A stretch of DNA of 59,730 nucleotides, filler included, from Stramenopiles sp. TOSAG23-6 (GCA_900128565.1; 12 parts of 12 records of this genome joined end to end with filler, not necessarily neighbours in it); one strand, 5' to 3'; shown: positions 1-47,575, counted from the first letter of the whole stretch. Numbers and translations are program-made. Notes: generated by a model not told the origin, from the letters alone.

Positions 1-2646
1 TCAGAATTATTTTCAGAATTATTTTCAGAATTATTTTCAGAATTATTTTCAGAATCATCTTGAACGAGTGTGCTTCCATACGTCATTTCAGTTTGTTTTC
101 GTGTTTCTTCTTCTTCAATACTACGCTGAAATAACATTGGTGGTAGAGCANCNAAANTTNCNAAANTTTTTTGACGNACGANATGTGATGTATGCATAAG
201 ATTTTCATTTTCAATGGTAATGGTGTAAATGTCACTGCGNAANTTTTCAAGTANTTTTTTTCGCCTANTTTTATCTGACNAANTTTTACTTTGTTCATTA
301 TTCATACTGACATTAATTGTATCAAGTTTATCTACAATTGCTTCAGTAAAAATTGTCATTGCAGTCAACACAGCGATATCATGTGGATGATCACTAAACC
401 AGGAAATTATATTTTCTGAAATATTGTGTACATAACTGTCAATACCACACCACTGACTTCTCGTACACAAACCTGCCAAGGCTTCAGCTGCAATTAATGT
501 TTTACGTTTTTCAACTGACATTTGACTTATATTACAAATAGAAGTATCATTATTAGTATGACTCTTATCATGTAAAGACAAAGTTGTGAAAATATTCACG
601 AGACTTTCGCCAAATAATGATAAGTCATTTAGATCTACAGGTTTTGATTCGTACACAGGAAGTAGTGACGTCATACATCGTAATAAGCTCCATGTTGTAC
701 AGTCATTCTGAANCCCTACACCNAAACCNTTTTTCGTATCNAAANTNCTGNCNAATTCTTTTTTATCACGATTCTTCAATAATAATGCAACTTTTGGTAA
801 TAATTCAAGTGGAACGTTCAAAGACGAAATACTCTTTGTACCTAATTTTGTACCTAATACTTTTGCCTGTGGTAATACAGGTAGAACAAACTCTCGGAGA
901 AATTCAAGTNATNATNAAGANTTTTTTACNTCCACCGAAATAAATCTGGTAACAACTTGAAGTATAATTGGTGCAATAATAGATGCGAATGTCTCAATAG
1001 CTTTTTTCGAATTTTTATGTTGACCTCCCATAGCAGGTATCATACACTCTAAGCTTGATAATACTTCACCTGGTCGAATTGAAAATAAATTAGAAATTCC
1101 AGTTGTAGTTGGAAATAAATTAGAAGAAATTAAAGTCTTCAAAGGATGAACTGTATTAGAATGGACAGAATTATTTTGCAACGCCACAAATGAGGCAGCA
1201 AATAATTCTAATATAGTTTCGTGTAATGCAGTGATAGTAGTATCTAATTCGACAACATGTTTTGTATTTTTCAAGTCATCGTTTTGTTCTGTACTCNTTT
1301 TTTTACTANTTTNCCNTTGTACACATTTTTGGGTAAAGCTTAATAGTTTCGGCAAAACACTTTGTAACGTCTTTCCTTCCTCTTCACAAACCAATTTCCC
1401 CTGATGATGACCGACCCAAAATCGCAATTGTTCGATAAGTTGTGTGATGTATAATAAATCATCGACGTGTAAAGATGAAATATCTTGCTTTATCATATTG
1501 GATAGAATTTTGTCGATGTTACAATGTAGACTTGACCAAATTAAACTACAATTGTATTTTGACGTATAATTTCGCATCAAACTAAATGTCTTATGACATA
1601 TTTCATATATAATAAGCATTTCTTCATTATTTTCCTCATTAGTATTATCATTTTTGTGTTTTGGATGAAACGATTCCAACATCATATTAACTAGTCCTTC
1701 TCCTAAACGAGAATGAAATTGACCTTTAATATTCTTCACAGTTTCAAAGAGTAATCGTGAAATACATGTACTGTGNAAAAATANTTNAAAAAAAAAATTG
1801 TTANGNACAAAATTTCGTACGNAAATNAAAACNAAATTGNAAAAAAAATGNAAACGTACCNTCGTGTACATCCGGATTATTAGCACCAGATCCTGAAGAG
1901 ACGGCATATAAAATACTTCGAATATGTTGACAAGCAGTAGATAAGGAAAGTCTACGTAACATATATGAAAAACAGTCTGCTCCATAGTGACGAATGAAAG
2001 GTTTTTTATGTCCTAATGTAGGACCATAAAATTGTTGTATTGAGGATATATCATTTCGCAATTGTTTTGACATATGTTTCATGATGATCGAAATCGTTTT
2101 AAATAACTGTGCAGACTTCTCTGGACTTGATGGATCTAAGAGTTTCAACAAGCATGACGTCACTTTTGAAAAGTAGGGCCAAATATCTTCTCCCAAGTCA
2201 CGAAATAGAATTCCTGTCAAGACCAATAAGGAATTTCTAGCTGCCGTAATACAACTTCCCTTAACTTCCAAATGTTTGATTAATATCTGAATCACTTTTT
2301 CTAAGTTATGCAATAATAATGGAAGTGATTGTGATAGAGGGGCTACTTCTTTCCAGAAAGCTTTGAAGTGTGGAGAATTATCCAGCTCTTCGTGACGCAG
2401 TCGGAGCTCATCTTGAAAGAACCACTCTCTGTCATCGTCACGTTCGCAAAGTTTACCTCTAGTCAATGCCTTCCGTGCCTCAACAACCTGCGCCTTTTGA
2501 TTACGAAAATGAAATCGCTTTGTACGTTGCTTCTTTGTCAACTGAAGTGTCTCCGGTGGGAGGATACCTGTTGCTGCTGCTTGTCGGAGTCTCTTTCTGT
2601 CCCTTCTATTATGAGCATCCATCATACCTGGAGCAATACCCGGCAT
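1..2646 (-). CDS. UTP20: U3 snoRNP-associated protein UTP20, N-terminal part (exons 2646-1860 and 1765-<1; 3' truncated)
   Basis: N-terminal KRFHFRNQ, PLSQSLPLLLHN, and after intron removal DGISRLLFETVKNIKGQFHS resemble the UTP20 N-terminus; HEAT-like helical composition. Confidence 0.75.
1766..1859 (-). mobile_element. Introner-like non-canonical intron (GT...AT) in UTP20, partly N-masked copy
   Basis: Same element as the clean copy at 46695-46788. Confidence 0.7.
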
Positions 2647-3206
2647 TGTAGTGCAATGTACTATACGATTATACTAATTTATTCAACCCTTATATCAATG
2701 GTATGTGCAATATTTGTTTATACCAGAAAGTACACGTAGATAATCAGAATATTCCTTGTTCTGGTATCCAGCACAATAACTGTTAGTAGTACAGTCAAGA
2801 AAGACACACGGAAGACAAAGCTTCGCTGGCTTCATTATACGATGAGTAGAGGTNAANCNAAGCAGGNTTGTGANTTTTTTTGACTNATCNAATGATNCNT
2901 GNATGGATGGCCATTGGTCTTCTTCGAGAATCTCTTTTGTGTTTGTGTCAAAATAAACAAGAGACATTTTTCACCACTAACTCGTAAGTAATTTCTCTTT
3001 AAGACTTAGATGCAATACCATTCACGTAGATACATTGTAAAGGATACAATACTCTTTGTATTTGAATTGGTTTGATTCTTTGCGTGTCTTTTTGTTTGTA
3101 TCTGTGTAATATCTTATTCTTTTAACTTCAACATTATATGAAACACTCACTGTTCCTCATTTACACCTCTGTATACCACANTTTATAGAACGNAAAAAAC
3201 NTTATN

Positions 3207-3993
3207 ATNGCNACTCCTGATCTTGCTCAGTTGAGTTCAATATGCCCGGTATCAGCTCCATTCTTTGGATTTATGGGTGTAAGTTCTGCACTCGTTTTTT
3301 CTAGTAAGTTATCATCTTATATTCTAACCGCTGTTGACATCTATCCNAAGTTGTGNAACCAACTTNCCCCCCCCCATCACTCANTGTTGGCTCTTTATAC
3401 ACTCTAGCTGCATTGTCCATTTCATATACAATGCAGTCATTTTAGACTAGTATTTCAGTAAAATATATCCGAATGACGTATTTGAAAATATCGTAAAANA
3501 ACTCNTTGTCACTNTTTTTCANTACTATNCNTTTACTANTNTAGACCTAGGAGCTGCGTATGGTACTGCAAAATCTGGTGTTGGAATTGCTTCGATGGGT
3601 GTATTTAATCCAAACGATGTGATGCGTAACATTATCCCAGTTATTATGGCTGGNGTCCTTGGTATATATGGCCTCATCACATCTGTAATTCTTAGCTCAC
3701 AAATTCAGGGTCCAACAAATAAGGACTCTGTTGGCATTCATGGAACATACACTGCCTTTGACGGCTATCGTCACCTCGCATCTGGATTAACATGTGGTCT
3801 CAGTGGTCTTGCAGCAGGTATGGCTATTGGTGTTGTTGGAGATGCTGGGGTGCGTGCTGTAGGACAACAACCTCGTCTTTATGTGCCTTCCGTTCTTGTA
3901 CTAATTTTTTCTGAAGCTTTAGCGTTGTATGGACTTATTGTTGGTATCATCCTCGGAGTTGCTCAAAGTAATGATTCGTGCATAATGAAATAA
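3207..3993 (+). CDS. VMA3: V-type H+-ATPase 16 kDa proteolipid subunit c (exons 3207-3303, 3545-3993)
   Basis: [61 protein letters not shown]. Confidence 0.95.
3304..3544 (+). other. Conventional GT-AG spliceosomal intron (241 nt), not of the repeated family
   Basis: GTAAGT...TATAG; phase 1 join gives FSNLGAAYG. Confidence 0.9.
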
Positions 3994-4211
3994 TAATTGT
4001 TTGTGATGGTGTGAGGAATGTATTTCCTGATATTCTACGTAATGGTGAGGTATCCGCAATGTATGTGTGAAAAAGTTTTTAACCTTGCTATTGAACAGTT
4101 CATTGNGGCACNAATCNAAGACNAATTCANTTTTTTTATTCTNAAAGATGTNAATNTTGATATATTTTCCTATATACNTTTTTANTTTTTTATNTNAANA
4201 ACTATNAAANG

Positions 4212-4899
4212 TTAAACAGCGCCTAATTCACTCATTTCCGCCATAAAAGCAGAAAAATCTCCACTTACTTCTTTTTNAGTTCCGACTGTTGTTGAAGGCT
4301 TTGGAGGNGGCGGTGGAACAACCTTTCTTTTGATTTNTCTCTTTGGTTTTGTCTTTGGTCGCGGACGACGTCGAAGAGATTTTGGTTTCATAAGTAGAAG
4401 ATCCGCTTGAATAGGCANTTTGNCGGTTGTCATTTTTGATTTCGTGTTTTGTGTATAATGATGAAGTTGTTGTTGACTATTTGGATCATATTGATAATTG
4501 TGTTGTTGTTGATTGTAATTCTGTACATTTCCTTCATTGCCAGTGAGACCAAAACGAGCATTATGCCGCAAAATCTCTCCAGGAGATTTTAGATTTTTGG
4601 TTGACTTCATTTTTTTGTCCTGTGGTAGATATCCTGCCTGCTGCTTTGACATTGACGTCATATTATTTGTTCTATTTATACTTTGTTTTATGCTATTAAT
4701 TCTATCTTCTACTACAGGCTGAATGCCCATCTGATTATTCAGATTTTTAGCAGGAGCGTTCATCATCATAGTAGAAGTACTCTTAATCTGATTCAAATTC
4801 ATATGTGGTATGTATTGATTATTTGTTTGTGGTGGCATTCCTGGTGGATATTGATTATTTGTTGGTGGTGGTATTCCTGGNGGATATTGATTATTTGTT
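4212..4899 (-). CDS. C-terminal part of a proline-rich protein, WBP11/ELF5-like (5' truncated)
   Basis: PQTNNQY repeats, LLLMKPKSLRRR, poly-Pro and terminal DFSAFMAEMSELGAV recall WBP11-type C-termini; recognised from memory only. Confidence 0.4.
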
Positions 4900-5104: not shown

Positions 5105-5827
5105 GTGGAATGGTTTTGATTACTTTTTACACTTACTGAAAATGTATACTACTTCCTATGAAAAAGTTATATTTATCGGGTCTAGTATGGGAGGTACTGC
5201 AGCATTGTTGTTTGCTCATTTAGCCAATGTACGTTTCTTTAGCCCTAACCCTAATCACAAAAAAAATCACAAAAAAAAAATATTTTTTTTTTAAATTTTT
5301 GATTTTGTTGTATACAATATATTTTTTCGTAGTGAATTTTGTACCTAACAAAAATTTAATTTTTTTTTTAATATTTTCTCAAAATGCATAGAGTAATTTC
5401 ATTTGGTCCCAAATATAACATGAAACACGCACATGGCTCATATTTGCCAAATCGTATTATAACAAAATGTACAAAATTAATTAAAAAAAATGTCTCTTTG
5501 GCGATTGATAATGAAACGCAAGTTAACGTTCATATAGGAGCACAAAATTTAGATGATGTTTTACAGGGTAGAAAATATGTTTTTTTTACTACAATTTTTT
5601 TTTTTTTTTTCATAGTAAATTTTGTACCTAATGATTTTTTTTTTGAAACTAAAAAAAAAAAAAAAAAATATTTTTCACAAAATATGTTATTAAATGATGT
5701 TCCAGATGTACAAATAAAGCACCATGAAACATTTCATCATAATATTCCAATGTTTCTCGAGCGAGAAGATAAATTGATAAATTTAGTGAAACGAGAAGTC
5801 ATTGAACTTGCTATCCAAACCAGTTGA
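5105..5827 (+). CDS. Alpha/beta hydrolase-fold protein, C-terminal exons (5105-5228, 5390-~5574, ~5686-5827)
   Basis: Nucleophile elbow FIGSSMGG, joined AHLAN/RVISFGP, late His (HHNIP). Confidence 0.7.
5229..5389 (+). mobile_element. Family intron GT...AT, 161 nt, flanking AT duplicated
   Basis: AAT|GTACG ... TTTTGTACCTAAC ... AAAATGCAT|AGA; joins two ORFs. Confidence 0.75.
5575..5685 (+). mobile_element. Family intron with uncertain 5' end (ATATG at 5575 or GT at 5568)
   Basis: TTTTGTACCTAAT core and TATTTTTCACA terminus; reads as poly-F/poly-K in the ORF. Confidence 0.6.
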
Positions 5828-6002: not shown

Positions 6003-6186
6003 CATAAATAAAGACGTCAAATATTGAGCACATAAATAAAGACATCAAATATTGAGCACATAAATAAAGACATCAAATATTGAGCACATACATAAAGACA
6101 TCAAACATATGTCGTTGAACATGTCAAATATTGAGCACATACATAAAGACATCAAACATATGACGTTGAGCATGTTGATATTTGAG
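6003..6186. repeat. Tandem 28-bp and 51-bp repeats overlapping a stop codon
   Basis: CATAAATAAAGACATCAAATATTGAGCA units; TCAAACATATG at 6101 and 6152. Confidence 0.85.
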
Positions 6187-9100
6187 TCTGTATTTCACCA
6201 ACACTTTCCTCAACATTGTCATTTACACAGGAACATCTGACACACACAAATATAATGGCAAGAGTTGATAAAACAACAACACACAAGAAAATAATTGAAA
6301 CGGCAGATCGAAAACGGAAAAAATCATCGAATAATTTTTTCCTGTCCTCATTTTCTTGTTTTGCTTCTTGTTTTGGTATTGGTGTAGTGTTTGTAACTCT
6401 ATCATTTGTCTGCTCTTTTTCAATTTCACGCTCTCTTTCAATTTCAATTTCGTGCTCAACAAAATGTCTTTCAGGGTCATACTCCCATTCTGGTTTAATG
6501 TCACCACCAAAACTCCGATATGCACCTTCCATTGGAAGCTCGCGTTCTACCCATTCGGGCTCTGGTAAAGCCCGAAAAACACCTTCCTTCGGGTCATAAA
6601 ATTGTCGATTCTCATGAGGTTTCCCTACTTTATCGACTTTGACAAATTTCAATTCAGCATCTCGTTTTTCTTTGGCAGCTTTCAATTCAGCATCTCGTTT
6701 TTCTTTGGCAGCTTTCAATTCAGCATCTTGTTTTTCTTTGGCAGCTTTCAATGCAGCATCTCGTTTTTCTTTGGCAGCTTTCAATTCAGCATCTTGTTTT
6801 TCTTTCGCAGCTTTCAATTCAGCAGCTTTTTCTTCTTTAACTTTCAAATCAGCAGCGGCTTTCACTAAAGCAGCTTGTTTTGCTTTCACAGCTTTCAAAA
6901 TCACTGCAGCAGCGTGTTTGGCAGCTTTTTCATTTTCAGCTTTCAACTCAGCAATATCTTTGCGAGCTTTTTCATTTTTAGCTTTCAACTCAGCAGCATA
7001 TTTAGCGGCTTTCGCTAAAAAGTGTTTGGCAGCTTTTTCATTTTTAGCTTTCAACTCAGCAGCATCTTTGGCAGCTTTTTCTTCTTTGACTTTCAAATCA
7101 GCAGCGTCTTTGGCAGCTTTCACTGCAGCAGCTTTTGCTTCTTTTTCTTCTTTAACTTTCAAATCAGCAGCGGCTTTCACTGCAGCAGCTTGTTTTGCTT
7201 TCGCAGCTTTCACTGCAGCAGCGTGTTTGGCAGCTTTCGCAGCAGCAACTTTTGCTTTCGCAGCTTTCAAAACAGCGGCTTCTTTGGCAGCTTTCACTGC
7301 AGCAGCGTGTTTGGCAGCTTCTTCATTTTGAGCTTTCAACTCAGCAGCATCTTTGGCAGCTTTTTCATTTTTAGCTTTCAACTCAGCAGCGTCTTCAGCG
7401 GCTTTCACTAAAGCAGCTTTTTCTTCTTTAGCTTTTGCGTCTTTAGCTTTCAAATCAGCAGCGTCTTTAGCGGCTTTCTCTAAAGCATTTCTTTCTTCAA
7501 AAGTTCTTAGATTTTCTCTTTTCACATTTACTGATCTACCGCCTCCTTGTAGAACTACTCTGTACCGATCTTTAATTAATATATATCTACCGATTGTACA
7601 ATATGTACCATTTAATGCTGGTTCAGATTGTATACCTGTTAGTTCTACAACTGTGCCTGGTTTTAGTTCATCTTTATGAGATTCGCTTGATTCGGGAAGG
7701 GAAGTTCTTTTACGTCTCTTGCCAGACGAAAGGGAAGGTTTTTCATGTCCATCGCGAGACGGTGTTTGTCCCTTCCTCAAAGGAGGTTCTTTTTGGGAAA
7801 GTGTTCCCTGTATCGCACTAAATACAACGTCTGGTGCATGCTCTAAGTCGTCTGGTGCTTCTCTTAACGCTTCGGCATTTTGGTTAACGATAGTCTTTAC
7901 AAACGCTTTATTTTTACGGAGGGATTCTGATGCATATTTTAAAGCAAAACCAGATTCAGCAGCAAATTGCATGATTACATTAGGATCATTGCGTATCTCA
8001 TATGAGGCAAACTGAAGTGCACCTGCATCTTGTTCAAGCGCAACCATTACAATGTTACGATCAGCACGTTTTGTTTTTGATGCGAATTGAAGAGCTTTCC
8101 CATATTGTTTTACAGCTGCCAAAACAACTTCATCGTCGTTGCGCAACTTTGTACCTGCAATTTCAAATAAAGATCCGTCCACTTTCACAGCTGCCAGTAC
8201 AATGTCCTTAGCACGACAATTCTCTTTTGTTGTAAATTTAAGCGCAGTTGCGTTGTTTTGAACGGCAATTAAGACGATATCATGATCACCACGTAATCGC
8301 TCTGAAGCATATTGAAGTGCCAAGCCATCATTCTTCACAGCTGCTTTTACGTATATTTTGTCATCCCGTAGTCTTTCCGATGCAAATTCAAGCGCTAATC
8401 CATTCTGATTCAAAGCTTTCAATACAACTCCTAATTTATCACGTATTCCGTCTGACGCAAATTGAATCGCTTTCCCATTCTGTTTCACGGCTTCTGAAAC
8501 AATTTTCACGTCTTCACGAAGTGTTTTATCCGCAAATTGAAGCGCGGCACCTCGTGATCTCACTGCTTCCATCACAATCCCACGATCATATAACAATTGA
8601 GGATTTGCATATCTAATTGCTAATCCGTTATTGCGAACGGCAGCTAAGACGACGTCACGGTCTTCACGTAATTCGAATGAAGCAAATTGAAGTGCTTCAC
8701 CATGATTCTTCACAGCTGCTTTTACGAATTTTTTGTTACCCCATAGTCTTTCCGATGCGGATTCAAACGTTAATCCATTCTGATCCAATCTCTTCAATAA
8801 AACTCCAAATTTAGCACGTATCCAGTCTGACGCAAATTGATTCGCTTTCCGATCCTGTCTCACGGCTTCAAGTACAACAACTAAGTCTTCACGAAGTGTT
8901 TTATCCGCAAATTGAAGCGCGGTACCTCGTGATCTCACTGCTTCCATCACAATCCCACGATCATATAACAATTGAGGATTTGCATATCTAATTGCAAATC
9001 CGTTATTGCGAACGGCAGCTAAGACGACATCACGGTCTTTACGTAATTCGAATGAAGCAAATTGAAGTGCTTCACCATCATTCTTCACAGCTTCTAAAAC

Positions 9101-9190
9101 ACTTCCTTTACTTGAAGTCTTATCAATTGTGGCACAAACAATTGTTCCAAGAAGTATCAAATTGAATATTAAACACGTTTTCAGTAGCAT
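6152..9190 (-). CDS. DUF4116-repeat protein with signal peptide, small SH3-like domain, Ala/Lys-rich coil and C-terminal TM helix
   Basis: Repeats AVxxxGxALQFASxxLRxDxxVV; PGTVVELTGIQSEPALNG; KAAKDAAELK repeats; hydrophobic termini. Confidence 0.8.
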   Translation of the reverse strand: MLLKTCLIFNLILLGTIVCATIDKTSSKGSVLEAVKNDGEALQFASFELRKDRDVVLAAVRNNGFAIRYANPQLLYDRGIVMEAVRSRGTALQFADKTLREDLVVVLEAVRQDRKANQFASDWIRAKFGVLLKRLDQNGLTFESASERLWGNKKFVKAAVKNHGEALQFASFELREDRDVVLAAVRNNGLAIRYANPQLLYDRGIVMEAVRSRGAALQFADKTLREDVKIVSEAVKQNGKAIQFASDGIRDKLGVVLKALNQNGLALEFASERLRDDKIYVKAAVKNDGLALQYASERLRGDHDIVLIAVQNNATALKFTTKENCRAKDIVLAAVKVDGSLFEIAGTKLRNDDEVVLAAVKQYGKALQFASKTKRADRNIVMVALEQDAGALQFASYEIRNDPNVIMQFAAESGFALKYASESLRKNKAFVKTIVNQNAEALREAPDDLEHAPDVVFSAIQGTLSQKEPPLRKGQTPSRDGHEKPSLSSGKRRKRTSLPESSESHKDELKPGTVVELTGIQSEPALNGTYCTIGRYILIKDRYRVVLQGGGRSVNVKRENLRTFEERNALEKAAKDAADLKAKDAKAKEEKAALVKAAEDAAELKAKNEKAAKDAAELKAQNEEAAKHAAAVKAAKEAAVLKAAKAKVAAAKAAKHAAAVKAAKAKQAAAVKAAADLKVKEEKEAKAAAVKAAKDAADLKVKEEKAAKDAAELKAKNEKAAKHFLAKAAKYAAELKAKNEKARKDIAELKAENEKAAKHAAAVILKAVKAKQAALVKAAADLKVKEEKAAELKAAKEKQDAELKAAKEKRDAALKAAKEKQDAELKAAKEKRDAELKAAKEKRDAELKFVKVDKVGKPHENRQFYDPKEGVFRALPEPEWVERELPMEGAYRSFGGDIKPEWEYDPERHFVEHEIEIEREREIEKEQTNDRVTNTTPIPKQEAKQENEDRKKLFDDFFRFRSAVSIIFLCVVVLSTLAIIFVCVRCSCVNDNVEESVGEIQTQISTCSTSYV

Positions 9191-9570
9191 ATTCTTGTGT
9201 TCTTTTGTTTCTTTGTCTCTCAAAAGAAGAGAGAAATCTTTGTTTGTGTGGCTACGAGTAAGGGTATAACGCGCGCGATGGCAGATCGAAATAGCAAATT
9301 AAAAAAAAATTGTGATCATAAATTCCGAAATTGATTTCAGATTCAATTTGACAATTTCATTCAGTGAAAATAGAATTTCGATAGATACACGAAATAGTAG
9401 CAATCCTAACCTTGAAGAAAAGAAAAACGGTGTAAGGCTGTGATAATCTATGGAACGTCCACAATTCATATTGTTTTATTTTTTGTAACGAAAATTAAAA
9501 AAAAAGAAGTTCACTATTTCAAACCCCAACCCTAGCTACAACACTTTAAACTTGTTTTATAAAATTAAAT

Positions 9571-13255: not shown

Positions 13256-14830
13256 TCAAGTAGTCAGTTTTCTGTATTTCGTTTTTCGCCCTGATCGAAG
13301 CATTTTTATAACATTAAATTCATTACTATATCCATGCATAAGTATTGTGAAAAAATATTTTAAAGTAAAAAAAATGGTTAGGTATAAAATTTTCGATAAA
13401 AAAATAATTCGAAATTCAAATTTTGAAAACAAACAACATCACGTAAATCACCAAATACATCATAATTAAAATGTGTCACTCTTTCTGAAAATATCTCATT
13501 TGTTTCAAAAGTTTCACGTAATTTTTCACAATAATAATAAATAGATAATTCTGAGTTAATTCTACCAAATTGGTTGTTACTTCTAGCTATTATCTTCCCT
13601 GTCACATCCATGTATTTTGGAAAAATATTTCAAAAAAAATCGTTAGGTACGAAATTTCGTACGAAAAAAAAATCGACTTTGAAAAAAAATAAAACATCCA
13701 TATATGTAACTCCTGGAATCCTTGAAAAGACTGATAGAAATTCATTAATATTTAGAGGTAAAATCTGGACGTTTACATATTGAATTTTCATTTCTAAAGC
13801 AGCAACCGTTCTGTGATGACCATCGGCAATGTAGAAATCCCTAGTAATTATAATACGATCAAAATTATTATGAGGATTTGTAAAAAGATTAAACTCTGTA
13901 CTGCTTGCATTAGGGTTAGGGTCATCATTATGAGAAAAATGGTCTAAAGTATTTGAATAGTCCTGCTTTTTAAAATCTGATATTAATCTTTCAACACCAG
14001 TGCTTGAAACATCCTTCTGTATATATTTTAATAGCCCAACCCTAATTTTTGATAACTTAATGTCTCCATATTCTTTTTCGAATTTTTGTCTCAANGTAAA
14101 GTTCGTCAAGATATCACTAGGTTGCGGCATAAATCTTCTTGATAATTTTGGAGTTTGCGGCATAAATCTTCTTGATAATTTTGGAGTTTGGAGTTTTGAT
14201 GTTTGATCTGTGAAGTTTAACAAATTACTCAGAAAATTTCTTGGGTCATTTTCATCGTATTCTTCAGCTTCATCTTCGTTTGCATCAAATTGATTAGAGT
14301 TCAGTTTAGGAAATGTGAAAAGAAATGGCATGTAATGTGAAAAACATTTAAAAAAAAAATCGTTAGGTACGAAATTTGGTACAAAAACTTTTTTGAAATT
14401 CAATTTTGAAAGCATACATATACACTCCTATAAAACTACCTACAACAGAACTAATTGTTAAAACTGTAGATAAAAATAAAACTCCACGTTTTCGTTGATT
14501 TTCTCTTTTTGTCACTTGATTTTGATTTAGATATTGAAATATATTGTGAAAAAATATTTCAAAAATTCGAAATTCGTCAGGTACAAAATTTCATTGTCAA
14601 AAAACAAATAAATTTCAAATTCATAATGAAAACGTACATATTTGATTTCTAATACTCATAACTGTTTTCAAAAATGCATTCCTTACGTTTAAATTATTCT
14701 GTACATCAGTGCTTTTATTATTCTGAAACAATGTTAATTGCACAGTTTTCATATTCTTTCGGAATATTTCGTTATCCCATTCTACTGTAAAAGGAATCTC
14801 CTGCAATCCTATAAAGTTCCTTGTACCACC
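13256..14830 (-). CDS. Multi-exon protein with TM segment and ParB/sulfiredoxin-like motif (exons ~14830-14638, 14538-14418, 14329-13700, 13609-13435, 13339-13256; 5' truncated)
   Basis: One continuous frame after removing four family introns; IIITRDFYIADGHHRTVAA. Confidence 0.65.
13340..13434 (-). mobile_element. Family intron GT...TT, 95 nt, TT duplicated
   Basis: GTT|GTTTG ... TACCTAAC ... CACAATACTT|ATG. Confidence 0.7.
13610..13699 (-). mobile_element. Family intron, 90 nt, GG...AT in family register
   Basis: AT|GGATG ... TTCGTACGAAATTTCGTACCTAAC ... AAATACAT|G; ATGGATGT direct repeat makes the borders slide. Confidence 0.7.
14330..14417 (-). mobile_element. Family intron GT...AT, 88 nt, AT duplicated
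   Basis: TAT AT|GTATG ... CACATTACAT|G CCA gives GVYMPFLF. Confidence 0.75.
14539..14637 (-). mobile_element. Family intron GT...AT, 99 nt, branch variant CCTGAC
   Basis: ATA T|GTACG ... CACAATATAT|TT CAA gives RNQIFQYL. Confidence 0.75.
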
Positions 14831-14895
14831 AAATATTATGTGAAAAAATATTTCAAAAAAAAATCTAAAAAAATTGTTAGGTACGAAATTTCGTA
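14831..14895 (-). mobile_element. 3' part of family intron (end TT or AT, ambiguous)
   Basis: TACGAAATTTCGTACCTAAC ... TATTTTTTCACATAATATTT; cut by contig end. Confidence 0.6.
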
Positions 14896-14995: not shown

Positions 14996-15053
14996 CGAAA
15001 TTTTGTACCTAACAATTTTTTTTTTTTTTTTGAAATATTTTTCCAAAATACAT
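14996..15053 (+). mobile_element. 3' part of family intron, ends ATAC-AT
   Basis: CGAAATTTTGTACCTAAC ... TATTTTTCCAAAATACAT. Confidence 0.7.
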
Positions 15054-21018: not shown

Positions 21019-21133
21019 AAATGGTGTATTCAGCCATTATTAAATTATCAGTGAATAGCAACATAGGAATAAAATAATTTCACCTAAACATATTGAGTTC
21101 TATAATGATTTATTTTATTTTTGAAAAACATAA

Positions 21134-29974: not shown

Positions 29975-30103
29975 TTTTTCTATGAAAATTTTGTATTTTC
30001 ATTAGGTACAAAATTTCGTACGAAAAAAAAAATTATTTTTTTTTTCTATGAAAATTTTGTATTTTCATTNGGNACAAAANTTNCGTACGAAAAAAAAACG
30101 TAC
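29975..30103 (-). mobile_element. 5' part of family intron with duplicated core
   Basis: TT|GTACG, then two CGTACGAAATTTTGTACCTAAT units; cut by contig start. Confidence 0.7.
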
Positions 30104-34810: not shown

Positions 34811-34864
34811 ATGTATTTTGGAAAAATATTTCAAAAAAAAAAAAAAAAATCGTTAGGTACAAAA
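34811..34864 (-). mobile_element. 3' part of family intron, ends ATAC-AT
   Basis: TTTTGTACCTAACG ... TATTTTTCCAAAATACAT; cut by contig end. Confidence 0.7.
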
Positions 34865-34964: not shown

Positions 34965-37900
34965 AAAATCTTCGGAAAAAATTGCTTACAGATTTACAAC
35001 CAAAGATGATTCGTGGTAGCGCTGTTACTGGTTCTGGTTTCATAACACTATTGCGTTCTTATGTTAATGCGATAAATAATGGTGGGGTTCCAGTTGTTGA
35101 TTCTGCGTGGGTGTCTTTAATGCGCCGTGAGTGTGATTTAGCAATGTCAATGTCGACTGAAATTCATGAGGAAAATATAAAGAGGGCAAACTCAAATTTA
35201 CCGGTTGATGGAGTAGTATTAATGGAATTAGAGGGGAAAGATACTAATATTGTCTTGCAAGCGTTTGATCAAAGAGTAGGTACAAAGAGTGCTTTAAGTA
35301 AGGAGAAACGTATAGAATTGCAAAATACAATTTCTTCTTCGTGGAATGAAGTGAATAATTCTAATAAAAAAATCTCTGAGATAGAATGCGATTCAATCCT
35401 ACGGAGATGTTTTTCTTTGGAAATTGAAAAGAAGTTAGATACGAATGACACGAAATCTTCATTAGGAGAAGGTAAAGTAGGAGGTAAGTCAATTTTAGAA
35501 AGTAAAACAAAAGTACATTTAAATGGGGATACTATTTGGCATACGTATGATACTGCTGTCAAAAAATACATGACGAGTGCTGCTGGTCCAGCTAAGATGA
35601 AAATATTACAAAAAGTTGGCATTCAGAAGTTACGACATTTAGTTAATTCGCAAATTCGTGCTAATGTTTCAGTAGTAAGTGACTTACAGAGACAAATTCT
35701 AATAAATAAGTCTCGTATTAAAGATTATGAAATTGATATAGATGACTTTAAGAAAATGGCTGCTGTTGAAATAGAAAAGAGAGAAAGAATGGAGTCACAA
35801 TACAAATTACTCAAAACAAAAAATCGAGAAGATGACACCCGAATTAATAAATTTGTTGGCATGATTGCAGAAAAGGATAAGAAGGAAATCTCGCAGAAAA
35901 CAGAAATTTCTTTTCTTAAAAACAAAGTGAAAAAATATGAAGATATAATTGCAAAATGTAAATCAAAAACGGAAATGAATAATGATACAATTACAAAATT
36001 GAAAGCAACTGCAGAAGCGAATGATGCTAAGAGGCTAACTGAAGCAGAAAATAAAAGAATAGAAATCGAAAATTATAAGAAAGAAATTGAACTTTGGAAA
36101 GTAAAATGTGCAGAAATGGCAAAAGAGAAATCTTTGATGAAACTGAACATCAAAAAAACAAATGAAAAATGTGTACAATTAGAAAATGTTTTATCACAAA
36201 CAAAAAATACTCATAATGAAAAAAAACGACAATTAGAAAATCGATTGTTATTGTCGCGAGAAAGAATTGAAGCTTTGGAATCGAATTCTACTAGCAATGA
36301 TGATGCGTTCTTTGTAGCAGTACCAAAAACAGAACCAAAACGTCCCGCACGAAATACTGGCCCAAAGTCTTGGAAAAGGCAACAAAAGGAGAAACAACTT
36401 TCGAAGTCGATTACACCAGTGCCAACAGTAATGTCTTTGGTGAATGTTGAAGAAGATGGTTCATTTAGTGTTAATGAAGAGAGTGCCTCTATACTTTCTA
36501 AAATTAGCAAAAAAATTGCTATTGTAGTTGTGACTGGAATTTACCGATCTGGGAAATCGTTTCTAATGAACGCGTTACTAGGTGGTCATGTTGGTGGATC
36601 TAATGCATTTACTATTGGTCACTCGATAAAGTCATGTACCAAGGGTATTGTATGATTTATTTTTTTTCAAGTTTTTATATAATTGTGTTTTCGTACGAAA
36701 CTTTGTACCTAACAAATTTTACAAAAAAAATATTTTTTCACAATACTTTGGTGTTGTACGTCTCCAATAATTGTTGAAGATCAATTACGATTGCCAAAAG
36801 ATGTTTGTGTCATTCTACTAGATAGTGAAGGATTAGCTGCCGCTGGACAAGGCGAACGTGGACAAAACTATGATGATAAGATATTTACTTTAGCGATGCT
36901 TCTTGCCTCTAAAATTGTGTATAATGGAATGGGTACAATTACTGAAGCAAATATTCAACAATTAAGTTTTATTGGAAATATGTGCCGTAAAGTTGTTGAA
37001 AATAGCAAATTAGTACAATTTCCTTCATTCACGTGGGTTCTTAGAGATTTTTCATTGGCACTGCGCGATGCTTCTGGACATGATATATCTCCGACAGAAT
37101 ATATGGAAGAAACACTACGCAGTAAAGATGAAGTTGATGAAATCACAAAATCTCGTAATAAAGTTTGTGGAATGTTGAAAACGTTTTTTCCGGAAAGGGA
37201 CTGTGTCACTTTAGTACGACCTGCAGAAGATGAAAATGTATTACAAGATATTCAATCAAATTTAGATAAACTCCGTCCAGAGTTCATTGCTCAAGTCGAA
37301 AATCTTCGGAAAAAATTGCTTACAGATTTACAACCAAAGATGATTCGTGGTAGTGCTGTTACTGGTCCAGGATTCATATCACTTTTACGTTCTTATGTTA
37401 ATGCGATAAATAATGGTGCAGTACCAAGTGTACAAGGAGCATGGGAAAATGCATTACGACATCAGTGTTCCGACGCAATGGATGCAGCAACAGATTCGTT
37501 CAAGAAGGCCACTGAAGAGCTCAGTAAAGAATTTCCTGTGGATTCTGATGATTTGCCGGGTATGTTTAATACTTGTACTGTCGGATCTTTATCTTTGTTT
37601 GATCGTCGTGTTGGTACTAGAAATAAATCAACAGAAATTCATAGGAAAGAACTTATTAAAAATATGCAAGATTCTTGGAATGATTTGTTGCATCTTAATA
37701 AAAAAACGTCATTTAATGAGTGCGAAAAGATACTGAGAAAATATTTTGCAGAAGCTAAAATAGAAAACAAACTCCCTATCGAAGAATTTTGGGGGAAATA
37801 TTCAGAAGTAGTAAAAAAATATATGTCGGATGCTTTAGGTCCAGCTAAACTTGAAGTATTACAGTCTATAGGAACACAAAAACTTCAGAATATTTTTAAT

Positions 37901-39849
37901 GGACTGATGCGCGACAATAATTCAAAAGTTCGAGATATGTTTCGAAAGATCCAAAAGTCGGAAGGACATGCAGAAGAAAATCGAATTGAAGCCGAAAGAC
38001 ACCGAAAGGAAAATGAATTGCTCAGGAAAGGACACGACGAAGCTTTAGCTAAACTTGCAAATAGACACAAATCTGAGATGGATCGTCTCACAGATGAACA
38101 TCATGGTAATAGAGCAGAAGCTCTTGAGGAACTTGGAAGTGCTCATGCAGCCGATCTTTTGAAAATGGGTCGTGCAATTGCAATGAAGGCTAAAGCGCAC
38201 GATGAAGCAATGGATGAACTTGCAAATAATCACAAATCTGAGATCGATCGTATTACAAAAGAACATCATGGCAATAGAGAAGAAGCTCTTGAGGAATTAG
38301 CAAATGCTCATAAATCTGAATTGAAAAAAATGGAAAATGAAATTGAATTAAAGACGAAAGCACACGATGAAGCAATGAATGAACTTGCAAATAATCACAA
38401 ATCTGAAATTGATCGTATTACAAAAGAGCATCATGGTAATAGAGAAGAAGCTCTCGAGGAATTAGCAAATGCTCATAAAGCTGAATTGAAAAAAATGGAG
38501 AAAGAAATTGAAAAAACTCTTGGCGAGGAGTTGGACGAACTTGCAAATAATCATAAATCTGAGATGGATCGTCTCATCCTTGAACATCATGGCAATAGAG
38601 AAGAAGCTCTTGAGGAATTAGCAAATGCTCATAGAGCTGAATTGAAAAAAATGGAGAATGGAATTGAATTGAAAATCAAAGCGCACGATGAAGCAATGAA
38701 TGAACTTGCAAATAATCATAAATCTGAAATTGATCGTATTACAGAAGAACTTCATGGTAATAGAGAAGAAGCTCTCGAGGAATTAGCAACTGCTCATAGA
38801 GCTGAACTATCTCAACTTGAAAAACGATTAGCCGAGAAACATACTCTCTTTCATTCAAAGGCATTGAAAGATTTGGAAACAAATCATAAAGCTGAAGTTT
38901 TGCGAATGACGGAGGAACTTCATGGCAATAGAGAAGAAGCTCTTGAGAAATTAGCGAATGCTCATAAAGCTGAATTGAAAAAAAAGGAAAATGAAATTGA
39001 ATTAAAAACTAAAGCACACGATGAAGCAATGAATGAACTTGCAAATAATCACAAATCCGAAATTGATCGTATTACAAAAGATCATCATGGTAATAGAGAA
39101 GAAGCGATTGAGGAATTAGCAACTGCTCATAAAGCTGAATTAAAAAAAATGGAAAATGAAATTGAATTAAAGACGAAAGCGCACGATGAAGCAATGGATG
39201 AACTTGCTTACAAGCACAAATCTGAAATTGATCGAATCACAGATGAACATCATGGTAATAGAAAAGAAGCTCTCGAGGAATTAGCAAATGAGCACAAAGC
39301 TGAATTGAAAAAAATGGAAAATGAAATTGAATTAAAGACGAAAGCACACGATGAAGCAATGAATGAACTTGCAAATAATCACAAATCTGAAATTGGTCGC
39401 ATCACTGCGGAATTTGATGGTAATAGAGAAGAAGCGATTGAGGAATTAGCAAATGCTCATAAATCTGAATTGAAAAAAATGGAGAAGGAAATTGAATTAA
39501 AAACTAAAGCACACGATGAAGCAATGAATGAACTTGCAAATAATCACAAATCCGAAATTGATCGTATTACAAAAGATCATCATGGTAATAGAGAAGAAGC
39601 GATTGAGGAATTAGCAACTGCTCATAAAGCTGAATTAAAAAAAATGGAAAATGAAATTGAATTAAAGACGAAAGCGCACGATGAAGCAATGGATGAACTT
39701 GCTTACAAGCACAAATCTGAAATTGATCGAATCACAGATGAACATCATGGTAATAGAAAAGAAGCTCTCGAGGAATTAGCAAATGAGCACAAAGCTGAAT
39801 TGAAAAAAATGGAAAATGAAATTGAATTAAAGACGAAAGCACACGATGA
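34965..39849 (+). CDS. Giant guanylate-binding protein (GBP/atlastin family) with tandem GBP modules and long repeat coil (exons <34965-36649, 36749->39849)
   Basis: G1 GIYRSGKS, SCTKGI/W, G3 LLDSEG, WVLRDF; tail of an earlier GBP module at the contig start. Confidence 0.88.
36650..36748 (+). mobile_element. Family intron GT...TT, 99 nt, TT duplicated
   Basis: GGT ATT|GTATG ... TTTCGTACGAAACTTTGTACCTAAC ... CACAATACTT|TGG restores SCTKGIW. Confidence 0.85.
38030..39849 (+). repeat. 165-bp (55-aa) coding tandem repeat
   Basis: KAHDEAM.ELA.NHKSEIDRIT..HHGNREEA.EELA units recurring every 165 nt. Confidence 0.9.
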
Positions 39850-41715: not shown

Positions 41716-43494
41716 ATGGAGTATATATCATCACGTCTACCCCTAGGTGAACCGATAATACCAGTTTCAATTGATAGTAATGGGTTCAAAGTACCAAAGA
41801 TACAAATATTCATGGATTTACGAAACCAACTTGAAGTTCTAAAGGAACAGATAAGAAAAAAAATGTTATTGGAAGGTACTCCTTTTCAACGAAATGGCCT
41901 CCGAATTTATTTTAATCATTCTACGTTCTGGAACACAGTAGAAAAACAAACGATAAGAGAATCATTGAATAAACTTACAAATAAAAGTATGCTGACATGC
42001 ATTTGTTCGAAAAAAATACCGGGCATCTCAATGACTAAAATGTCTGATATTCTGGGGCAAACAAACTGTGAATGTGCTGATGTAAATTCAAGTAATACAA
42101 CTAGTACACAATTAAATAATACAACTAGTACACAATTAAATAATACAACTAGTACACAACTAAATAATACAACTAGTACACAACTAAATTATACTGAAGC
42201 ATACAAGCCATATACAACATCTCTTAAAGTTCTCGGACAAATCGCTGAGCAACTTGATTATAATGCTGTACAAAGTGGTGAGAAGACCCAGGTTCTTTCA
42301 GTAGCAGGAAACCTCGCAACTGCGTTTAACACAACTACAGCATCAAATAAAACGTCTGTAGTAGGAAACTTCACACCTGCATCTAACACAACAAAACCAT
42401 CAAATGAAACATTACCATTAAACACACTAAACCAAACAACGGCAGCATTGGATAAAATGACGCCAACATCAAACAACATAACGTCAGCATTGGATAAAAT
42501 AATGCCAACACTTAACAAAACAACGTCAGCATTAAGTGAAATAATTCCAACACTGAATAATACATCCTCATCACTAAATGACACATCATCATTCAATAGA
42601 ACAATGACAGCACTAAATAACACAACTTTATTCAATATGACAATGGCAGCGCTAAATGAAACCATGTCAGCCACAGCTTTATTCAATAAAACAATGTCAG
42701 CCACAGCTTTATTCAATAAAACATTGTCAACGCTGAATGAAACAGATTCTCAAACGATATCTCTTTATAATGAAACTTCGAAAGCAGCATCCATACTCAA
42801 CAAGTTATTGCCAGGAAAGGAATTGCCAATGCCTCAAGAAATTTTGAATAAAACATTATCTCAAGAAATTTTTCATAAAACATTATCAGCGCTGAATAAG
42901 ACGATACGATCTGCTAATACACTAGATGAAAAAAAATCGCAAGCCTCACTTCGTAAAACAATCTTGTCACTAGCAGCGCTTCATAAAATGGTTGATCATG
43001 ATGTACGTTTTCATTTCAATCTTGAAGTTTTTTTCGTACGAAATTTTGTACCTAACGATTCTTTTTTTAAATATTTTTTCATAATCAATGATCAATCCGT
43101 ATCAGAAAAGGATTCAAATAATTTCTCGGTTATTATGCAGTTTCCAGTTGAATATGATAAGACTGCTGTGTATACAGGCCTGTCGTCTTTTCTTCACAAC
43201 ACGTTTATTCATCGTGAAGAGAAATTACCACAAAATCAGTTCAGAAAAGAAAATGGTATTTTAAATGTCCTTGACGAAAATCCAGCAGAAAATCAAATAA
43301 AATACACCCCACAAGAAAATAATAACAATTACCTTCAGGCAACATTTCAGATTCCAGCAAATGCAAACGATACTCTAATAGAAAAGGAAAATGAAATGAA
43401 AAAGTTGGGAAACAGTGTACACTTCCCTGGAGAATTTGATAAATTTCGACCAATGATTACTGTATTAGATAAAAGGAACAGTACCAAATTTTAG
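41716..43494 (+). CDS. Thr/Asn/Ser-rich low-complexity protein (exons 41716-43002, 43090-43494); start uncertain
   Basis: Long ORF, NNTTSTQL repeats, many N-x-T/S sequons. Confidence 0.65.
   Translation: MEYISSRLPLGEPIIPVSIDSNGFKVPKIQIFMDLRNQLEVLKEQIRKKMLLEGTPFQRNGLRIYFNHSTFWNTVEKQTIRESLNKLTNKSMLTCICSKKIPGISMTKMSDILGQTNCECADVNSSNTTSTQLNNTTSTQLNNTTSTQLNNTTSTQLNYTEAYKPYTTSLKVLGQIAEQLDYNAVQSGEKTQVLSVAGNLATAFNTTTASNKTSVVGNFTPASNTTKPSNETLPLNTLNQTTAALDKMTPTSNNITSALDKIMPTLNKTTSALSEIIPTLNNTSSSLNDTSSFNRTMTALNNTTLFNMTMAALNETMSATALFNKTMSATALFNKTLSTLNETDSQTISLYNETSKAASILNKLLPGKELPMPQEILNKTLSQEIFHKTLSALNKTIRSANTLDEKKSQASLRKTILSLAALHKMVDHDVRFHFNLEVFFVRNFVPNDSFFKYFFIINDQSVSEKDSNNFSVIMQFPVEYDKTAVYTGLSSFLHNTFIHREEKLPQNQFRKENGILNVLDENPAENQIKYTPQENNNNYLQATFQIPANANDTLIEKENEMKKLGNSVHFPGEFDKFRPMITVLDKRNSTKF
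43003..43089 (+). mobile_element. Family intron GT...AT, 87 nt, AT duplicated, in frame
   Basis: GAT|GTACG ... TTTCGTACGAAATTTTGTACCTAACG ... TTTCATAATCAAT|GAT. Confidence 0.7.
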
Positions 43495-44760: not shown

Positions 44761-44829
44761 ATATATTTTGGAAAAATATTTAAAAAAAAAAACTAAAATT
44801 TGTTAGGTACAAAATTTCGTACGAAAAAA
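44761..44829 (-). mobile_element. 3' part of family intron, ends ATAT-AT
   Basis: TTTCGTACGAAATTTTGTACCTAAC ... CCAAAATATAT; cut by contig end. Confidence 0.7.
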
Positions 44830-44929
44830 NNNNNNNNNNNNNNNNNNNNNNNNNNNNNNNNNNNNNNNNNNNNTTAATTAATTAANNNNNNNNNNNNNNN
44901 NNNNNNNNNNNNNNNNNNNNNNNNNNNNN

Positions 44930-47575
44930 TCAGAATTATTTTCAGAATTATTTTCAGAATTATTTTCAGAATTATTTTCAGAATCATCTTGAACGAGTGT
45001 GCTTCCATACGTCATTTCAGTTTGTTTTCGTGTTTCTTCTTCTTCAATACTACGCTGAAATAACATTGGTGGTAGAGCAGCCAAAATTTCCAAACTTTTT
45101 TGACGAACGATATGTGATGTATGCATAAGATTTTCATTTTCAATGGTAATGGTGTAAATGTCACTGCGTAACTTTTCAAGTATTTTTTTTCGCCTATTTT
45201 TATCTGACAAAGTTTTACTTTGTTCATTATTCATACTGACATTAATTGTATCAAGTTTATCTACAATTGCTTCAGTAAAAATTGTCATTGCAGTCAACAC
45301 AGCGATATCATGTGGATGATCACTAAACCAGGAAATTATATTTTCTGAAATATTGTGTACATAACTGTCAATACCACACCACTGACTTCTCGTACACAAA
45401 CCTGCCAAGGCTTCAGCTGCAATTAATGTTTTACGTTTTTCAACTGACATTTGACTTATATTACAAATAGAAGTATCATTATTAGTATGACTCTTATCAT
45501 GTAAAGACAAAGTTGTGAAAATATTCACGAGACTTTCGCCAAATAATGATAAGTCATTTAGATCTACAGGTTTTGATTCGTACACAGGAAGTAGTGACGT
45601 CATACATCGTAATAAGCTCCATGTTGTACAGTCATTCTGAAACCCTACACCAAAACCTTTTTTCGTATCAAAATTCCTGCCTAATTCTTTTTTATCACGA
45701 TTCTTCAATAATAATGCAACTTTTGGTAATAATTCAAGTGGAACGTTCAAAGACGAAATACTCTTTGTACCTAATTTTGTACCTAATACTTTTGCCTGTG
45801 GTAATACAGGTAGAACAAACTCTCGGAGAAATTCAAGTAATAATAAAGATTTTTTTACTTCCACCGAAATAAATCTGGTAACAACTTGAAGTATAATTGG
45901 TGCAATAATAGATGCGAATGTCTCAATAGCTTTTTTCGAATTTTTATGTTGACCTCCCATAGCAGGTATCATACACTCTAAGCTTGATAATACTTCACCT
46001 GGTCGAATTGAAAATAAATTAGAAATTCCAGTTGTAGTTGGAAATAAATTAGAAGAAATTAAAGTCTTCAAAGGATGAACTGTATTAGAATGGACAGAAT
46101 TATTTTGCAACGCCACAAATGAGGCAGCAAATAATTCTAATATAGTTTCGTGTAATGCAGTGATAGTAGTATCTAATTCGACAACATGTTTTGTATTTTT
46201 CAAGTCATCGTTTTGTTCTGTACTCTTTTTTTTACTACTTTTCCATTGTACACATTTTTGGGTAAAGCTTAATAGTTTCGGCAAAACACTTTGTAACGTC
46301 TTTCCTTCCTCTTCACAAACCAATTTCCCCTGATGATGACCGACCCAAAATCGCAATTGTTCGATAAGTTGTGTGATGTATAATAAATCATCGACGTGTA
46401 AAGATGAAATATCTTGCTTTATCATATTGGATAGAATTTTGTCGATGTTACAATGTAGACTTGACCAAATTAAACTACAATTGTATTTTGACGTATAATT
46501 TCGCATCAAACTAAATGTCTTATGACATATTTCATATATAATAAGCATTTCTTCATTATTTTCCTCATTAGTATTATCATTTTTGTGTTTTGGATGAAAC
46601 GATTCCAACATCATATTAACTAGTCCTTCTCCTAAACGAGAATGAAATTGACCTTTAATATTCTTCACAGTTTCAAAGAGTAATCGTGAAATACATGTAC
46701 TGTGAAAAAATATTTAAAAAAAAAAATTGTTAGGTACAAAATTTCGTACGAAAATAAAAACAAAATTGAAAAAAAAATGAAAACGTACCATCGTGTACAT
46801 CCGGATTATTAGCACCAGATCCTGAAGAGACGGCATATAAAATACTTCGAATATGTTGACAAGCAGTAGATAAGGAAAGTCTACGTAACATATATGAAAA
46901 ACAGTCTGCTCCATAGTGACGAATGAAAGGTTTTTTATGTCCTAATGTAGGACCATAAAATTGTTGTATTGAGGATATATCATTTCGCAATTGTTTTGAC
47001 ATATGTTTCATGATGATCGAAATCGTTTTAAATAACTGTGCAGACTTCTCTGGACTTGATGGATCTAAGAGTTTCAACAAGCATGACGTCACTTTTGAAA
47101 AGTAGGGCCAAATATCTTCTCCCAAGTCACGAAATAGAATTCCTGTCAAGACCAATAAGGAATTTCTAGCTGCCGTAATACAACTTCCCTTAACTTCCAA
47201 ATGTTTGATTAATATCTGAATCACTTTTTCTAAGTTATGCAATAATAATGGAAGTGATTGTGATAGAGGGGCTACTTCTTTCCAGAAAGCTTTGAAGTGT
47301 GGAGAATTATCCAGCTCTTCGTGACGCAGTCGGAGCTCATCTTGAAAGAACCACTCTCTGTCATCGTCACGTTCGCAAAGTTTACCTCTAGTCAATGCCT
47401 TCCGTGCCTCAACAACCTGCGCCTTTTGATTACGAAAATGAAATCGCTTTGTACGTTGCTTCTTTGTCAACTGAAGTGTCTCCGGTGGGAGGATACCTGT
47501 TGCTGCTGCTTGTCGGAGTCTCTTTCTGTCCCTTCTATTATGAGCATCCATCATACCTGGAGCAATACCCGGCAT
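44930..47575 (-). CDS. UTP20: UTP20 N-terminal part, copy 2
   Basis: Same as 1-2646, unmasked. Confidence 0.75.
46695..46788 (-). mobile_element. Family intron GT...AT, 94 nt, in UTP20 (also 51662-51755, 56629-56722)
   Basis: GAT G|GTACG ... TTTCGTACGAAATTTTGTACCTAAC ... CACAGTACAT|GT ATT gives HDGISRLLFE. Confidence 0.8.

Follow-up and report, generated by a model that had tools for sequence, protein, structure and literature searches.

The window analysed here, a 59,730-base stretch of DNA, was made of 12 contigs of 4,867-4,899 bases, sorted by length and joined artificially by linkers consisting of N44, a 12-base stop-codon spacer and N44. It carries, in unrelated genes such as those encoding a GBP-like GTPase, a mitogen-activated protein kinase (MAPK)-like kinase, a PALP protein and an RRM-RsmH protein, a family of insertions of about 90 nt, which probably behave as introns and which mostly end in AT or TT in place of AG. 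The open frames of segments 1, 10, 11 and 12 (1-4899, 44930-49796, 49897-54763 and 54864-59730) are identical, only scattered Ns being different, and these segments therefore correspond to a single contig present four times. Unique sequence amounts to about 45 kb on nine contigs; the features of the quadruplicate contig would otherwise be counted up to four times. The G+C content of the stretch is about 0.27-0.39.

On the nine unique contigs, 19 complete and 7 cut copies of the family were delimited. An initial annotation of this DNA had counted 28 insertions, 20 of them complete; the family itself was found to be real, and the count given here is the one obtained after four segments were recognized as the same contig. 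The coordinates of the complete copies were set by hand, and this set leaves out three duplicate copies, the seven cut copies and weak or doubtful matches at 9773, 10235, 29300, 29352 and 45759. A single excision rule was applied to every complete copy: the sequence from GT to two bases past RTAC is removed and the longest open frame upstream is joined to the longest one downstream. The mention "in frame" in the following list refers to this rule.

5229-5389, plus strand: complete copy of 161 nt in an unnamed host gene, GT..AT, flank AT/AT, containing the CCCTAACCCTAA stretch; in frame, phase 0/0.
5579-5685, plus strand: degenerate copy of 107 nt containing long A/T runs and bordered by a direct repeat of 10 nt, its donor being GTTTTT; out of frame by the rule, the host open reading frame being open throughout.
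13340-13437, minus strand: complete copy of 98 nt with a weak donor (GTTGTT) and a TT end; in frame, phase 0/0.
13610-13699, minus strand: complete copy of 90 nt, donor altered to GG, 8-nt direct border repeat; in frame, phase 2/2.
14330-14417, minus strand: complete copy of 88 nt, GTATG..TTACAT; in frame, phase 2/2.
14539-14637, minus strand: complete copy of 99 nt, GTACG..ATATAT; in frame, phase 1/1.
14833-14895, minus strand: 3' part cut by a contig end, AT end, in the same host gene as the copies at 13340-14637; 3' end read by hand.
14996-15053, plus strand: 3' part at a contig start, with an ATACAT end deduced from the profile-match offset.
17243-17338, plus strand: complete copy of 96 nt without internal AG, flanked by open frames of 296 and 851 codons; in frame, phase 0/0.
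20590-20691, plus strand: complete copy of 102 nt in the PALP (cysteine-synthase-like) gene, flank AC versus end AT; Pfam PALP positions 51-205 lie upstream and 209-295 downstream.
22878-22968, minus strand: complete copy of 91 nt in the RRM-RsmH gene, the junction remaking a W codon (T/GG); gapless versus homologues.
23666-23755, minus strand: complete copy of 90 nt separating SSPQLD from GGRGF in the RRM-RsmH gene; in frame, one residue short versus 8/8 homologues.
24983-25046, minus strand: 5' part cut by a contig start, with an upstream flank AT before GTACG; profile match.
28356-28515, minus strand: complete copy of 160 nt, GT..TT, flank TT/TT; in frame, phase 0/0.
28647-28738, minus strand: complete copy of 92 nt, GTATA..ACACAT; in frame, phase 1/1.
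28830-28931, minus strand: complete copy of 102 nt, GT..TT, flank TT/TT; in frame, phase 0/0.
29975-30103, minus strand: 5' part with a doubled core, cut by a contig start, in the MAPK gene.
30241-30361, minus strand: complete copy of 121 nt, the sole complete copy with an AG end; in frame, phase 1/1.
30693-30854, minus strand: complete copy of 162 nt with its core duplicated in tandem, right after the DFGLAR codons of the MAPK-like kinase, flank GA and end AT; exon end as in homologues.
32611-32704, plus strand: copy located after an EGF-like exon; the rule fails, and frames fit with an end at 32702 (GT..AC), the downstream frame being of low complexity and possibly non-coding.
34811-34864, minus strand: 3' part at a contig end, sense to a downstream frame of 552 codons, with an ATACAT end deduced from the profile-match offset.
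36650-36748, plus strand: complete copy of 99 nt, GT..TT, flank TT/TT, in the GTPase domain of the GBP-like gene, junction TKGI/W; in frame.
43003-43089, plus strand: complete copy of 87 nt with a divergent 3' motif (ATCAAT), stop-free if retained; in frame, phase 0/0.
44761-44829, minus strand: 3' part at a contig end, sense to a serine-carboxypeptidase exon; end deduced from the profile-match offset.
46695-46788, minus strand: complete copy of 94 nt, flank TG versus end AT, repeated with its contig at 1766-1859, 51662-51755 and 56629-56722; in frame, phase 1/1.

The four consecutive introns described earlier within 13256-14830 were all found, together with the cut fifth one at 14833-14895, as were the three at 28356-28931. 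The family consensus consists of GTAYGTTTT..., an A/T-rich stretch, the palindrome TTTCGTACGAAA, the 13-base core TTTTGTACCTAAC, a T tract and CACA-RTAC followed by two bases. With up to 2 mismatches allowed, the core occurs 47 times versus 3.16 expected. A profile was built from 8 copies, as the initial annotation had proposed, and matched the unique contigs about 31 times, the best E-value being 5e-20. Pairwise identity among copies has a median of 0.67 and reaches its maximum (0.85) between copies located in different genes. Scanning metagenomes for further copies led to the recovery of two loci, of which L002 was usable and L001, which has no 3' end, was left out; scans of viral and prokaryote genomes with the family gave no match. 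On the minus strand of L002, at 2400-2410, a canonical-looking donor (CCAAG/GTAAGT) was noticed about 70 nt downstream of the family copy, and both types of introns seem to coexist in one gene on this contig.

All 25 copies with a readable frame (19 complete and 6 cut) are sense to their host gene, in agreement with what had been reported. Among the complete copies, the first dinucleotide is GT in 18 and GG in one, and the last is AT in 13, TT in four, AG in one and TC in one. The five cut copies with a visible 3' end all end in AT, which brings the totals to 18 AT, 4 TT and 1 AG, close to the 18, 4 and 2 given initially. The rule was in frame for 17 of the 19 complete copies, against the 1 in 3 that chance alone would give, and also for L002 on its unrelated contig, so the earlier claim that one rule restores the frame holds. 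Retention of the copies would meet a stop codon in 16/19 cases, and long open frames flank them (562 and 1034 codons around 36650-36748, for example). When the first AG after the branch motif was used as the 3' end instead, the frame was kept in just 7/19 copies. This is the chance level, and indicates that no AG at or close to the end given by the rule serves as acceptor; the in-frame downstream AGs pointed out initially for 17243, 20590 and 22968 do exist.

Since reading frames fix the removed length only modulo three, conserved motifs were checked at the junctions. In the GBP-like gene, the upstream exon aligns with solved GBP chains as far as ...TKGI and the next codon is W, which yields TKGIW; the downstream alignment with these chains begins at residue 20, so that the W was read from the sequence and not from the alignment. 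The Pfam GBP profile is split into positions 2-61 and 72-258 across the same junction. At the second junction of the RRM-RsmH gene (22878-22968), the split codon T/GG gives a W located in the same column in 5/7 homologues, with no gap. In the MAPK-like gene, the exon ends precisely at the R codon of DFGLAR. The motif DFGL(A/S)R is present in all 18 MAPK homologues of at least 200 residues, and the alignment passes the junction in 10 of them and stops there in 8. This exon end fixes the 5' cut at GT although the flank (GA) differs from the end (AT). An ancestral intron after DFGLAR was also considered and dropped, as 0/117 homologues end within 12 residues of the motif.

These junctions bear on a reading in which both cuts would lie two bases further upstream, generating AT..AC (more generally NN..AC) introns with an A-first/C-last pair. 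The shifted reading yields the same mRNA in 13/19 copies, 11/19 copies have ..AC just before the last two bases, and AT-AC introns with WCTAAC branch sites have been reported in some marine mirusviruses (PMC12768974). It would nevertheless destroy the R codon of the MAPK DFGLAR motif conserved in 18/18 homologues. The six copies with unmatched flanks would start with AC, GA, AG, TG or AT, whereas the GT at the rule position is kept in 18/19, and ATGTAC is no donor of the AT-AC type. We thus hold the shifted cuts to be quite unlikely.

The closest environmental relative of the RRM-RsmH protein (P0004, 69% identity, from a 10,320-base contig) matches as far as ...NWGYG and then continues with unrelated sequence. 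The point of divergence is four residues into the exon downstream of the junction 22878-22968, and may mean that a related organism has an intron close to this position.

The signals carried by the copies are those of the major (U2-type) class, except at the very end. The donor consensus is GTAYGT, which matches the 5' end of U1 at five of the six intron positions. A CT[AG]A[CTA] branch motif, followed by a T tract, is situated 32-37 nt before the 3' end in 14/19 copies and, taken more widely, 32-43 nt before it in 17/19 (range 24-62). The family thus shows the U2-type donor and the CTRAY branch site with a pyrimidine tract about 18-40 nt before the 3' end. The terminal AG, standard for introns of this class, is seen in 1/19 copies only, and AG is depleted inside the copies (21 versus 49.7 expected from base composition). 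The U2-like donor and branch point proposed by the initial annotation were accordingly recovered as GTAYGT and the CTAAC-type motif; that annotation had missed the target-like repeat of the terminal dinucleotide, described below, and the existence of a GT-AT class among minor introns. In two family copies within the MAPK gene (30693-30854 and 29975-30103), the core comprising palindrome and branch motif is duplicated in tandem, generating two candidate branch sites in each.

Removal by the minor (U12-type) spliceosome, with the 3' cut set by branch distance and GT-AT ends tolerated, has some features in its favor: CCTAAC is one base off the U12 consensus CCTTAAC, the 3' cut disregards AG, and introns with GT-AT ends are known as a rare class handled by the minor spliceosome (10.1101/2020.10.12.336362), so that terminal dinucleotides and an AG-independent 3' cut are shared. 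The donor is different, the family having GTACGTTTT or GTACGT without the TATCC core where RTATCCTT would be expected. The long T tract is a U2-type trait. In U12-type introns the branch site is usually some 10-15 nt away from the 3' end, and the branch-to-end distance of 32-43 nt in 17/19 copies is not of this kind. Taken together, these differences make the minor spliceosome an unlikely candidate.

Structure was considered next to these signals. Folding of ten copies was no better than that of shuffled sequences in 10/10 cases (z from +0.09 to -2.05), and the only feature that recurs is that the three bases opening the copy could pair with the UAC that precedes its final two bases. This bears on a removal that would not be spliceosomal, either at the RNA level, like the nonconventional introns of euglenids and diplonemids, or at the DNA level, like the eliminated sequences of ciliates. 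In the excerpts of PMC12621601 and PMC6221363, euglenid and hemistasiid diplonemid nonconventional introns have direct border repeats, non-AG ends and a suggested transposon origin. The family shares short border repeats, non-AG 3' ends and a suggested transposon origin with them, and its ends can pair (GUA with UAC). The introns of these excerpts lack U1 complementarity and have a strong G/C-rich pairing of their ends, whereas the family has a U1-type donor, a CTAAC branch and a T tract, all of spliceosomal type, and does not fold above shuffles. As to ciliate-type elimination, the copies are sense-only and not bounded by TA, and they are retained in an independent DNA sample, in which one contig spans 22400-24882 with both RRM-RsmH introns in place. 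The host moreover has a standard genetic code and a normal GT-AG intron. We regard non-spliceosomal removal as very unlikely.

The borders of the copies suggest a mobile origin. The two bases before GT are the same as the two terminal bases in 13/19 copies (permutation mean 8.9, p=0.009), with TT found upstream in 3/4 TT-ending copies, and the next exon base after the copy is G in 12/19. In total, the direct repeat at the borders measures 3-4 nt in most copies, but 8 nt at 13610-13699 and 10 nt at 5579-5685. These two copies also have degraded donors (GG and GTTTTT); either their 5' ends were perhaps restored with sequence taken from the exon downstream, or the length of the target duplication perhaps varies. 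Judged by these borders, the repeat looks like a target-site duplication of 2-3 bp and the family looks introner-like. Such a duplication would explain the single frame-restoring rule, as the element and one target copy would be removed.

In the mechanism we propose, each copy would come with GTAYGT as its donor, with a branch site of the CTAAC type and with a T-rich tract ending in CACA-RTAC. Its insertion would duplicate 2-3 target bases, mostly AT(G) and sometimes TT(G). The RNA removed would start at the donor G and include the first two bases of the downstream target copy, with the loss of the element and of one target copy and restoration of the frame. The last two intron bases would then be host-derived AT or TT and not AG, because the downstream target copy supplies them. 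The most likely remover would be the major spliceosome, cutting at the 3' side by distance or context (about 35 nt past the branch motif and 2 nt past RTAC). That the family is a short non-autonomous mobile element acting as an introner-like intron, probably removed by the U2-type spliceosome with an AG-free 3' cut, is the explanation we favor, with some confidence but short of certainty. The AG-independent acceptor with a U2-like donor and branch point, as proposed initially, agrees with the 17/19 copies obeying the rule, the motifs remade and the 7/19 of the first-AG model; from the DNA we infer removal at the RNA level, the exact cut sites, the machinery and the choice of the 3' site. A bolder version, which we put forward only tentatively and consider doubtful, is that the major spliceosome of this host ligates exons without reading AG, by means of a branch-site ruler or GUA-UAC pairing, and that a mobile element exploits this property at AT/TT(G) targets.

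Several observations weigh against an introner-like element spliced without AG. The terminal inverted repeats are of 3-4 nt only (GTA..TAC), and no transposase was found in Pfam scans of the frames scanned. The flanks mismatch in 6/19 copies, and the match is driven by a few TT cases. Where flanks do match, cuts shifted by up to the length of the repeat give the same mRNA, and the true termini are therefore not readable from DNA. Two of the 19 copies do not fit the rule, namely 5579-5685, which is homopolymer-rich and whose host frame runs through, and 32611-32704. An Rfam scan of the stretch gave no RNA family and hence no small nuclear RNA in the window, where no splicing-factor gene was found either. 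At the first junction of the RRM-RsmH gene (23666-23755), SSPQLD/GGRGF is one residue shorter than in the 8/8 homologues covering it, which makes the exact cut insecure; Pfam positions 109-111 face two residues only, and no nearby alternative cut matches better. In our reading, this shortfall is a change of one codon that accompanied the insertion, and it lowers the certainty on exact cuts; one-codon differences accompanying insertion have been described for some introners in passages of PMC9860276.

To the same side belong the RNA data. Four RNA runs share a small part of the sequence words of the stretch, and three metatranscriptome runs and one DNA run were compared over 19990-24882. The RNA contigs were short, low-depth exon pieces of the PALP and RRM-RsmH genes, and none from the three metatranscriptome runs joins across 20590-20691, 22878-22968 or 23666-23755. 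One of them extends 5 nt into the intron at 20590, and in another RNA run a family copy adjoins exon-like sequence. The joints found in the read comparison skip 690-3023 nt and link different repeat copies, and the high read depth over the elements is due to other copies. Protein searches gave no near-identical protein spanning a family junction; the sole 100% match (P0001, from a 4347-base contig equal in size to the contig of the DNA run) stops in the intron. The check by RNA reads suggested initially was thus made across these three junctions and revealed no joint, which neither supports nor refutes splicing.

The RNA contig entering intron 20590, the copy beside exon-like sequence and the in-frame downstream AGs of 7/19 copies could also be expected if the inserts were imprecisely removed, the genes being disrupted or decaying, or the mRNA being joined at the next downstream AG. 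Agreement of 17/19 copies with one rule is beyond chance, whereas the first-AG model stays at the chance level, and the long open frames on both sides and the conserved motifs remade at junctions likewise speak against it. Imprecise removal appears highly improbable to us, and AG-free splicing of an introner-like element remains the preferred explanation.

Among known systems, introners come closest to such an element. They are families of transposon-derived introns found in Micromonas, Aureococcus, Chrysochromulina, Symbiodinium and others, as described in parts of PMC9860276 and PMC12130899, and excerpts of the former include introners in which one splice site belongs to the element and the other is provided by the duplicated target. 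Sequence shared beyond the splice signals, sense orientation and frame-restoring removal were all found in the family. Many near-alike short introns in unrelated genes, short flanking direct repeats, borrowed splice signals and aquatic protist hosts, including the stramenopile Aureococcus, are shared as well. The difference lies in the termini: passages of PMC9860276 give rare GC/GA 5' splice sites and GY/AG core nucleotides for introners, whereas the family would take AT/TT from the target and AG is missing in 18/19 copies.

Repeated introns with direct border repeats of 3-5 nt, non-GT-AG termini and a suspected origin from miniature inverted-repeat transposable elements (MITEs) occur in the strains A25 and A120 of Amoebophrya, another marine protist, as stated in the part of PMC7789003 available. 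These features are common to both systems; the Amoebophrya elements, in the same part, have end-pairing inverted repeats of 8-20 nt and no preferred terminal dinucleotides, whereas the family has a GT donor in 18/19 copies, end pairing of 3-4 nt and no folding above shuffles. The tunicate Fritillaria is reportedly the subject of an account of non-canonical introns by Henriet in 2019. In Fritillaria borealis, AG ends have been replaced en masse in introns of MITE origin that are probably removed by the major spliceosome (excerpts of PMC13326754). Bulk loss of AG, probable removal by the major spliceosome and a MITE origin are the points of resemblance, with the difference that in those excerpts both ends are non-canonical and duplicated U2AF subunits read the new 3' ends, whereas here the 3' end alone deviates. 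Literature searches found no published description of the family, in line with the initial statement that the system was not recognised as described; supplementary introner tables, outside the coverage of these searches, could hold non-AG families.

Introners are the best current account of bursts of intron gain, and the families compared here rely on GY-AG ends. Where AG is known to have been abandoned on a large scale (Fritillaria, Amoebophrya, euglenozoans), the normal donor is lost too or end-to-end pairing is needed. In the present family the signals of donor, branch site and T tract are all kept; the change is confined to the two final bases, which were apparently copied from the target. 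If RNA data confirm this, it would be a natural system isolating the choice of an AG-free 3' site, with hundreds of near-identical cases. If AG-free ligation is true, recognition of AG, thought to be near-universal for the second step, would be dispensable in a free-living lineage that keeps GT-AG introns. In this lineage, which is abundant, marine and uncultured, gene finders requiring AG would annotate many genes wrongly.

As for the host, DNA of the stretch is also present in seawater metagenomes and in one small data set from 2015. The V-ATPase c subunit has stramenopiles as its nearest named proteins, at 62-69% identity (Chattonella, Phaeomonas, Aphanomyces, Tribonema, Heterosigma, Rhizochromulina, Triparma, Phytophthora, Ectocarpus and others), and unnamed environmental matches at 79-81%. 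For the RRM-RsmH gene, the nearest proteins come from dinoflagellates, haptophytes and green algae, which might be expectable for an organelle-related gene. Comparison with a protein atlas added no hint of the lineage. Pfam scans of the frames revealed DUF4116 repeats, BspA-type and plant-type leucine-rich repeats, and Sel1 with MYND domains, a content that we take, as weak support, to be in keeping with stramenopiles. We conclude from these sequence affinities that the host is an uncultured marine stramenopile, with no finer placement. A diplonemid origin, raised by the nonconventional introns, was dropped in view of the named stramenopile matches of V-ATPase c and the U1/U2-like signals. The V-ATPase c gene also contains an intron that is not a member of the family:

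48233-48473, plus strand: canonical GT-AG intron of the V-ATPase c gene, 241 nt, GTAAGT..TATAG.

Its junction is gapless in 5/5 homologues examined out of 120 listed. This canonical intron coexists with the family in the same genome; on about 45 kb of contigs prone to breaking at the repeat, the initial claim that most introns of the organism are spliced without AG is no more than a possibility.

Six contig ends fall inside a family copy (14895/14996, 24983, 29975, 34864 and 44829). The assembly therefore appears to be broken at the repeat, which probably biases the set of contigs carrying the family.

Other features of the window were noticed. On the plus strand, 34967-39847 forms a single long frame of 1,590 codons with tandem GBP modules, a GBP_C domain being followed by a GBP N-terminal GTPase and a second GBP_C. 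Opposite the DUF4116 gene (6155-9298, minus strand), low-complexity antisense frames of 237 and 130 codons are open at 6618-7411 on the plus strand, most likely as a by-product of repeat composition. The 11-mer CCTAACCCTAA, made of two telomere-type units (usually CCCTAACCCTAAT), occurs 10 times versus 0.00 expected, at 5244, 9635, 13910, 27488, 29011, 30628, 33383, 33404, 33776 and 33797. It is mostly found on the coding strand within exons, where it is translated as PNPN, and one copy lies in the family intron 5229-5389. CCTAAC, as in this telomere-type context, is also part of the branch motif of the family.

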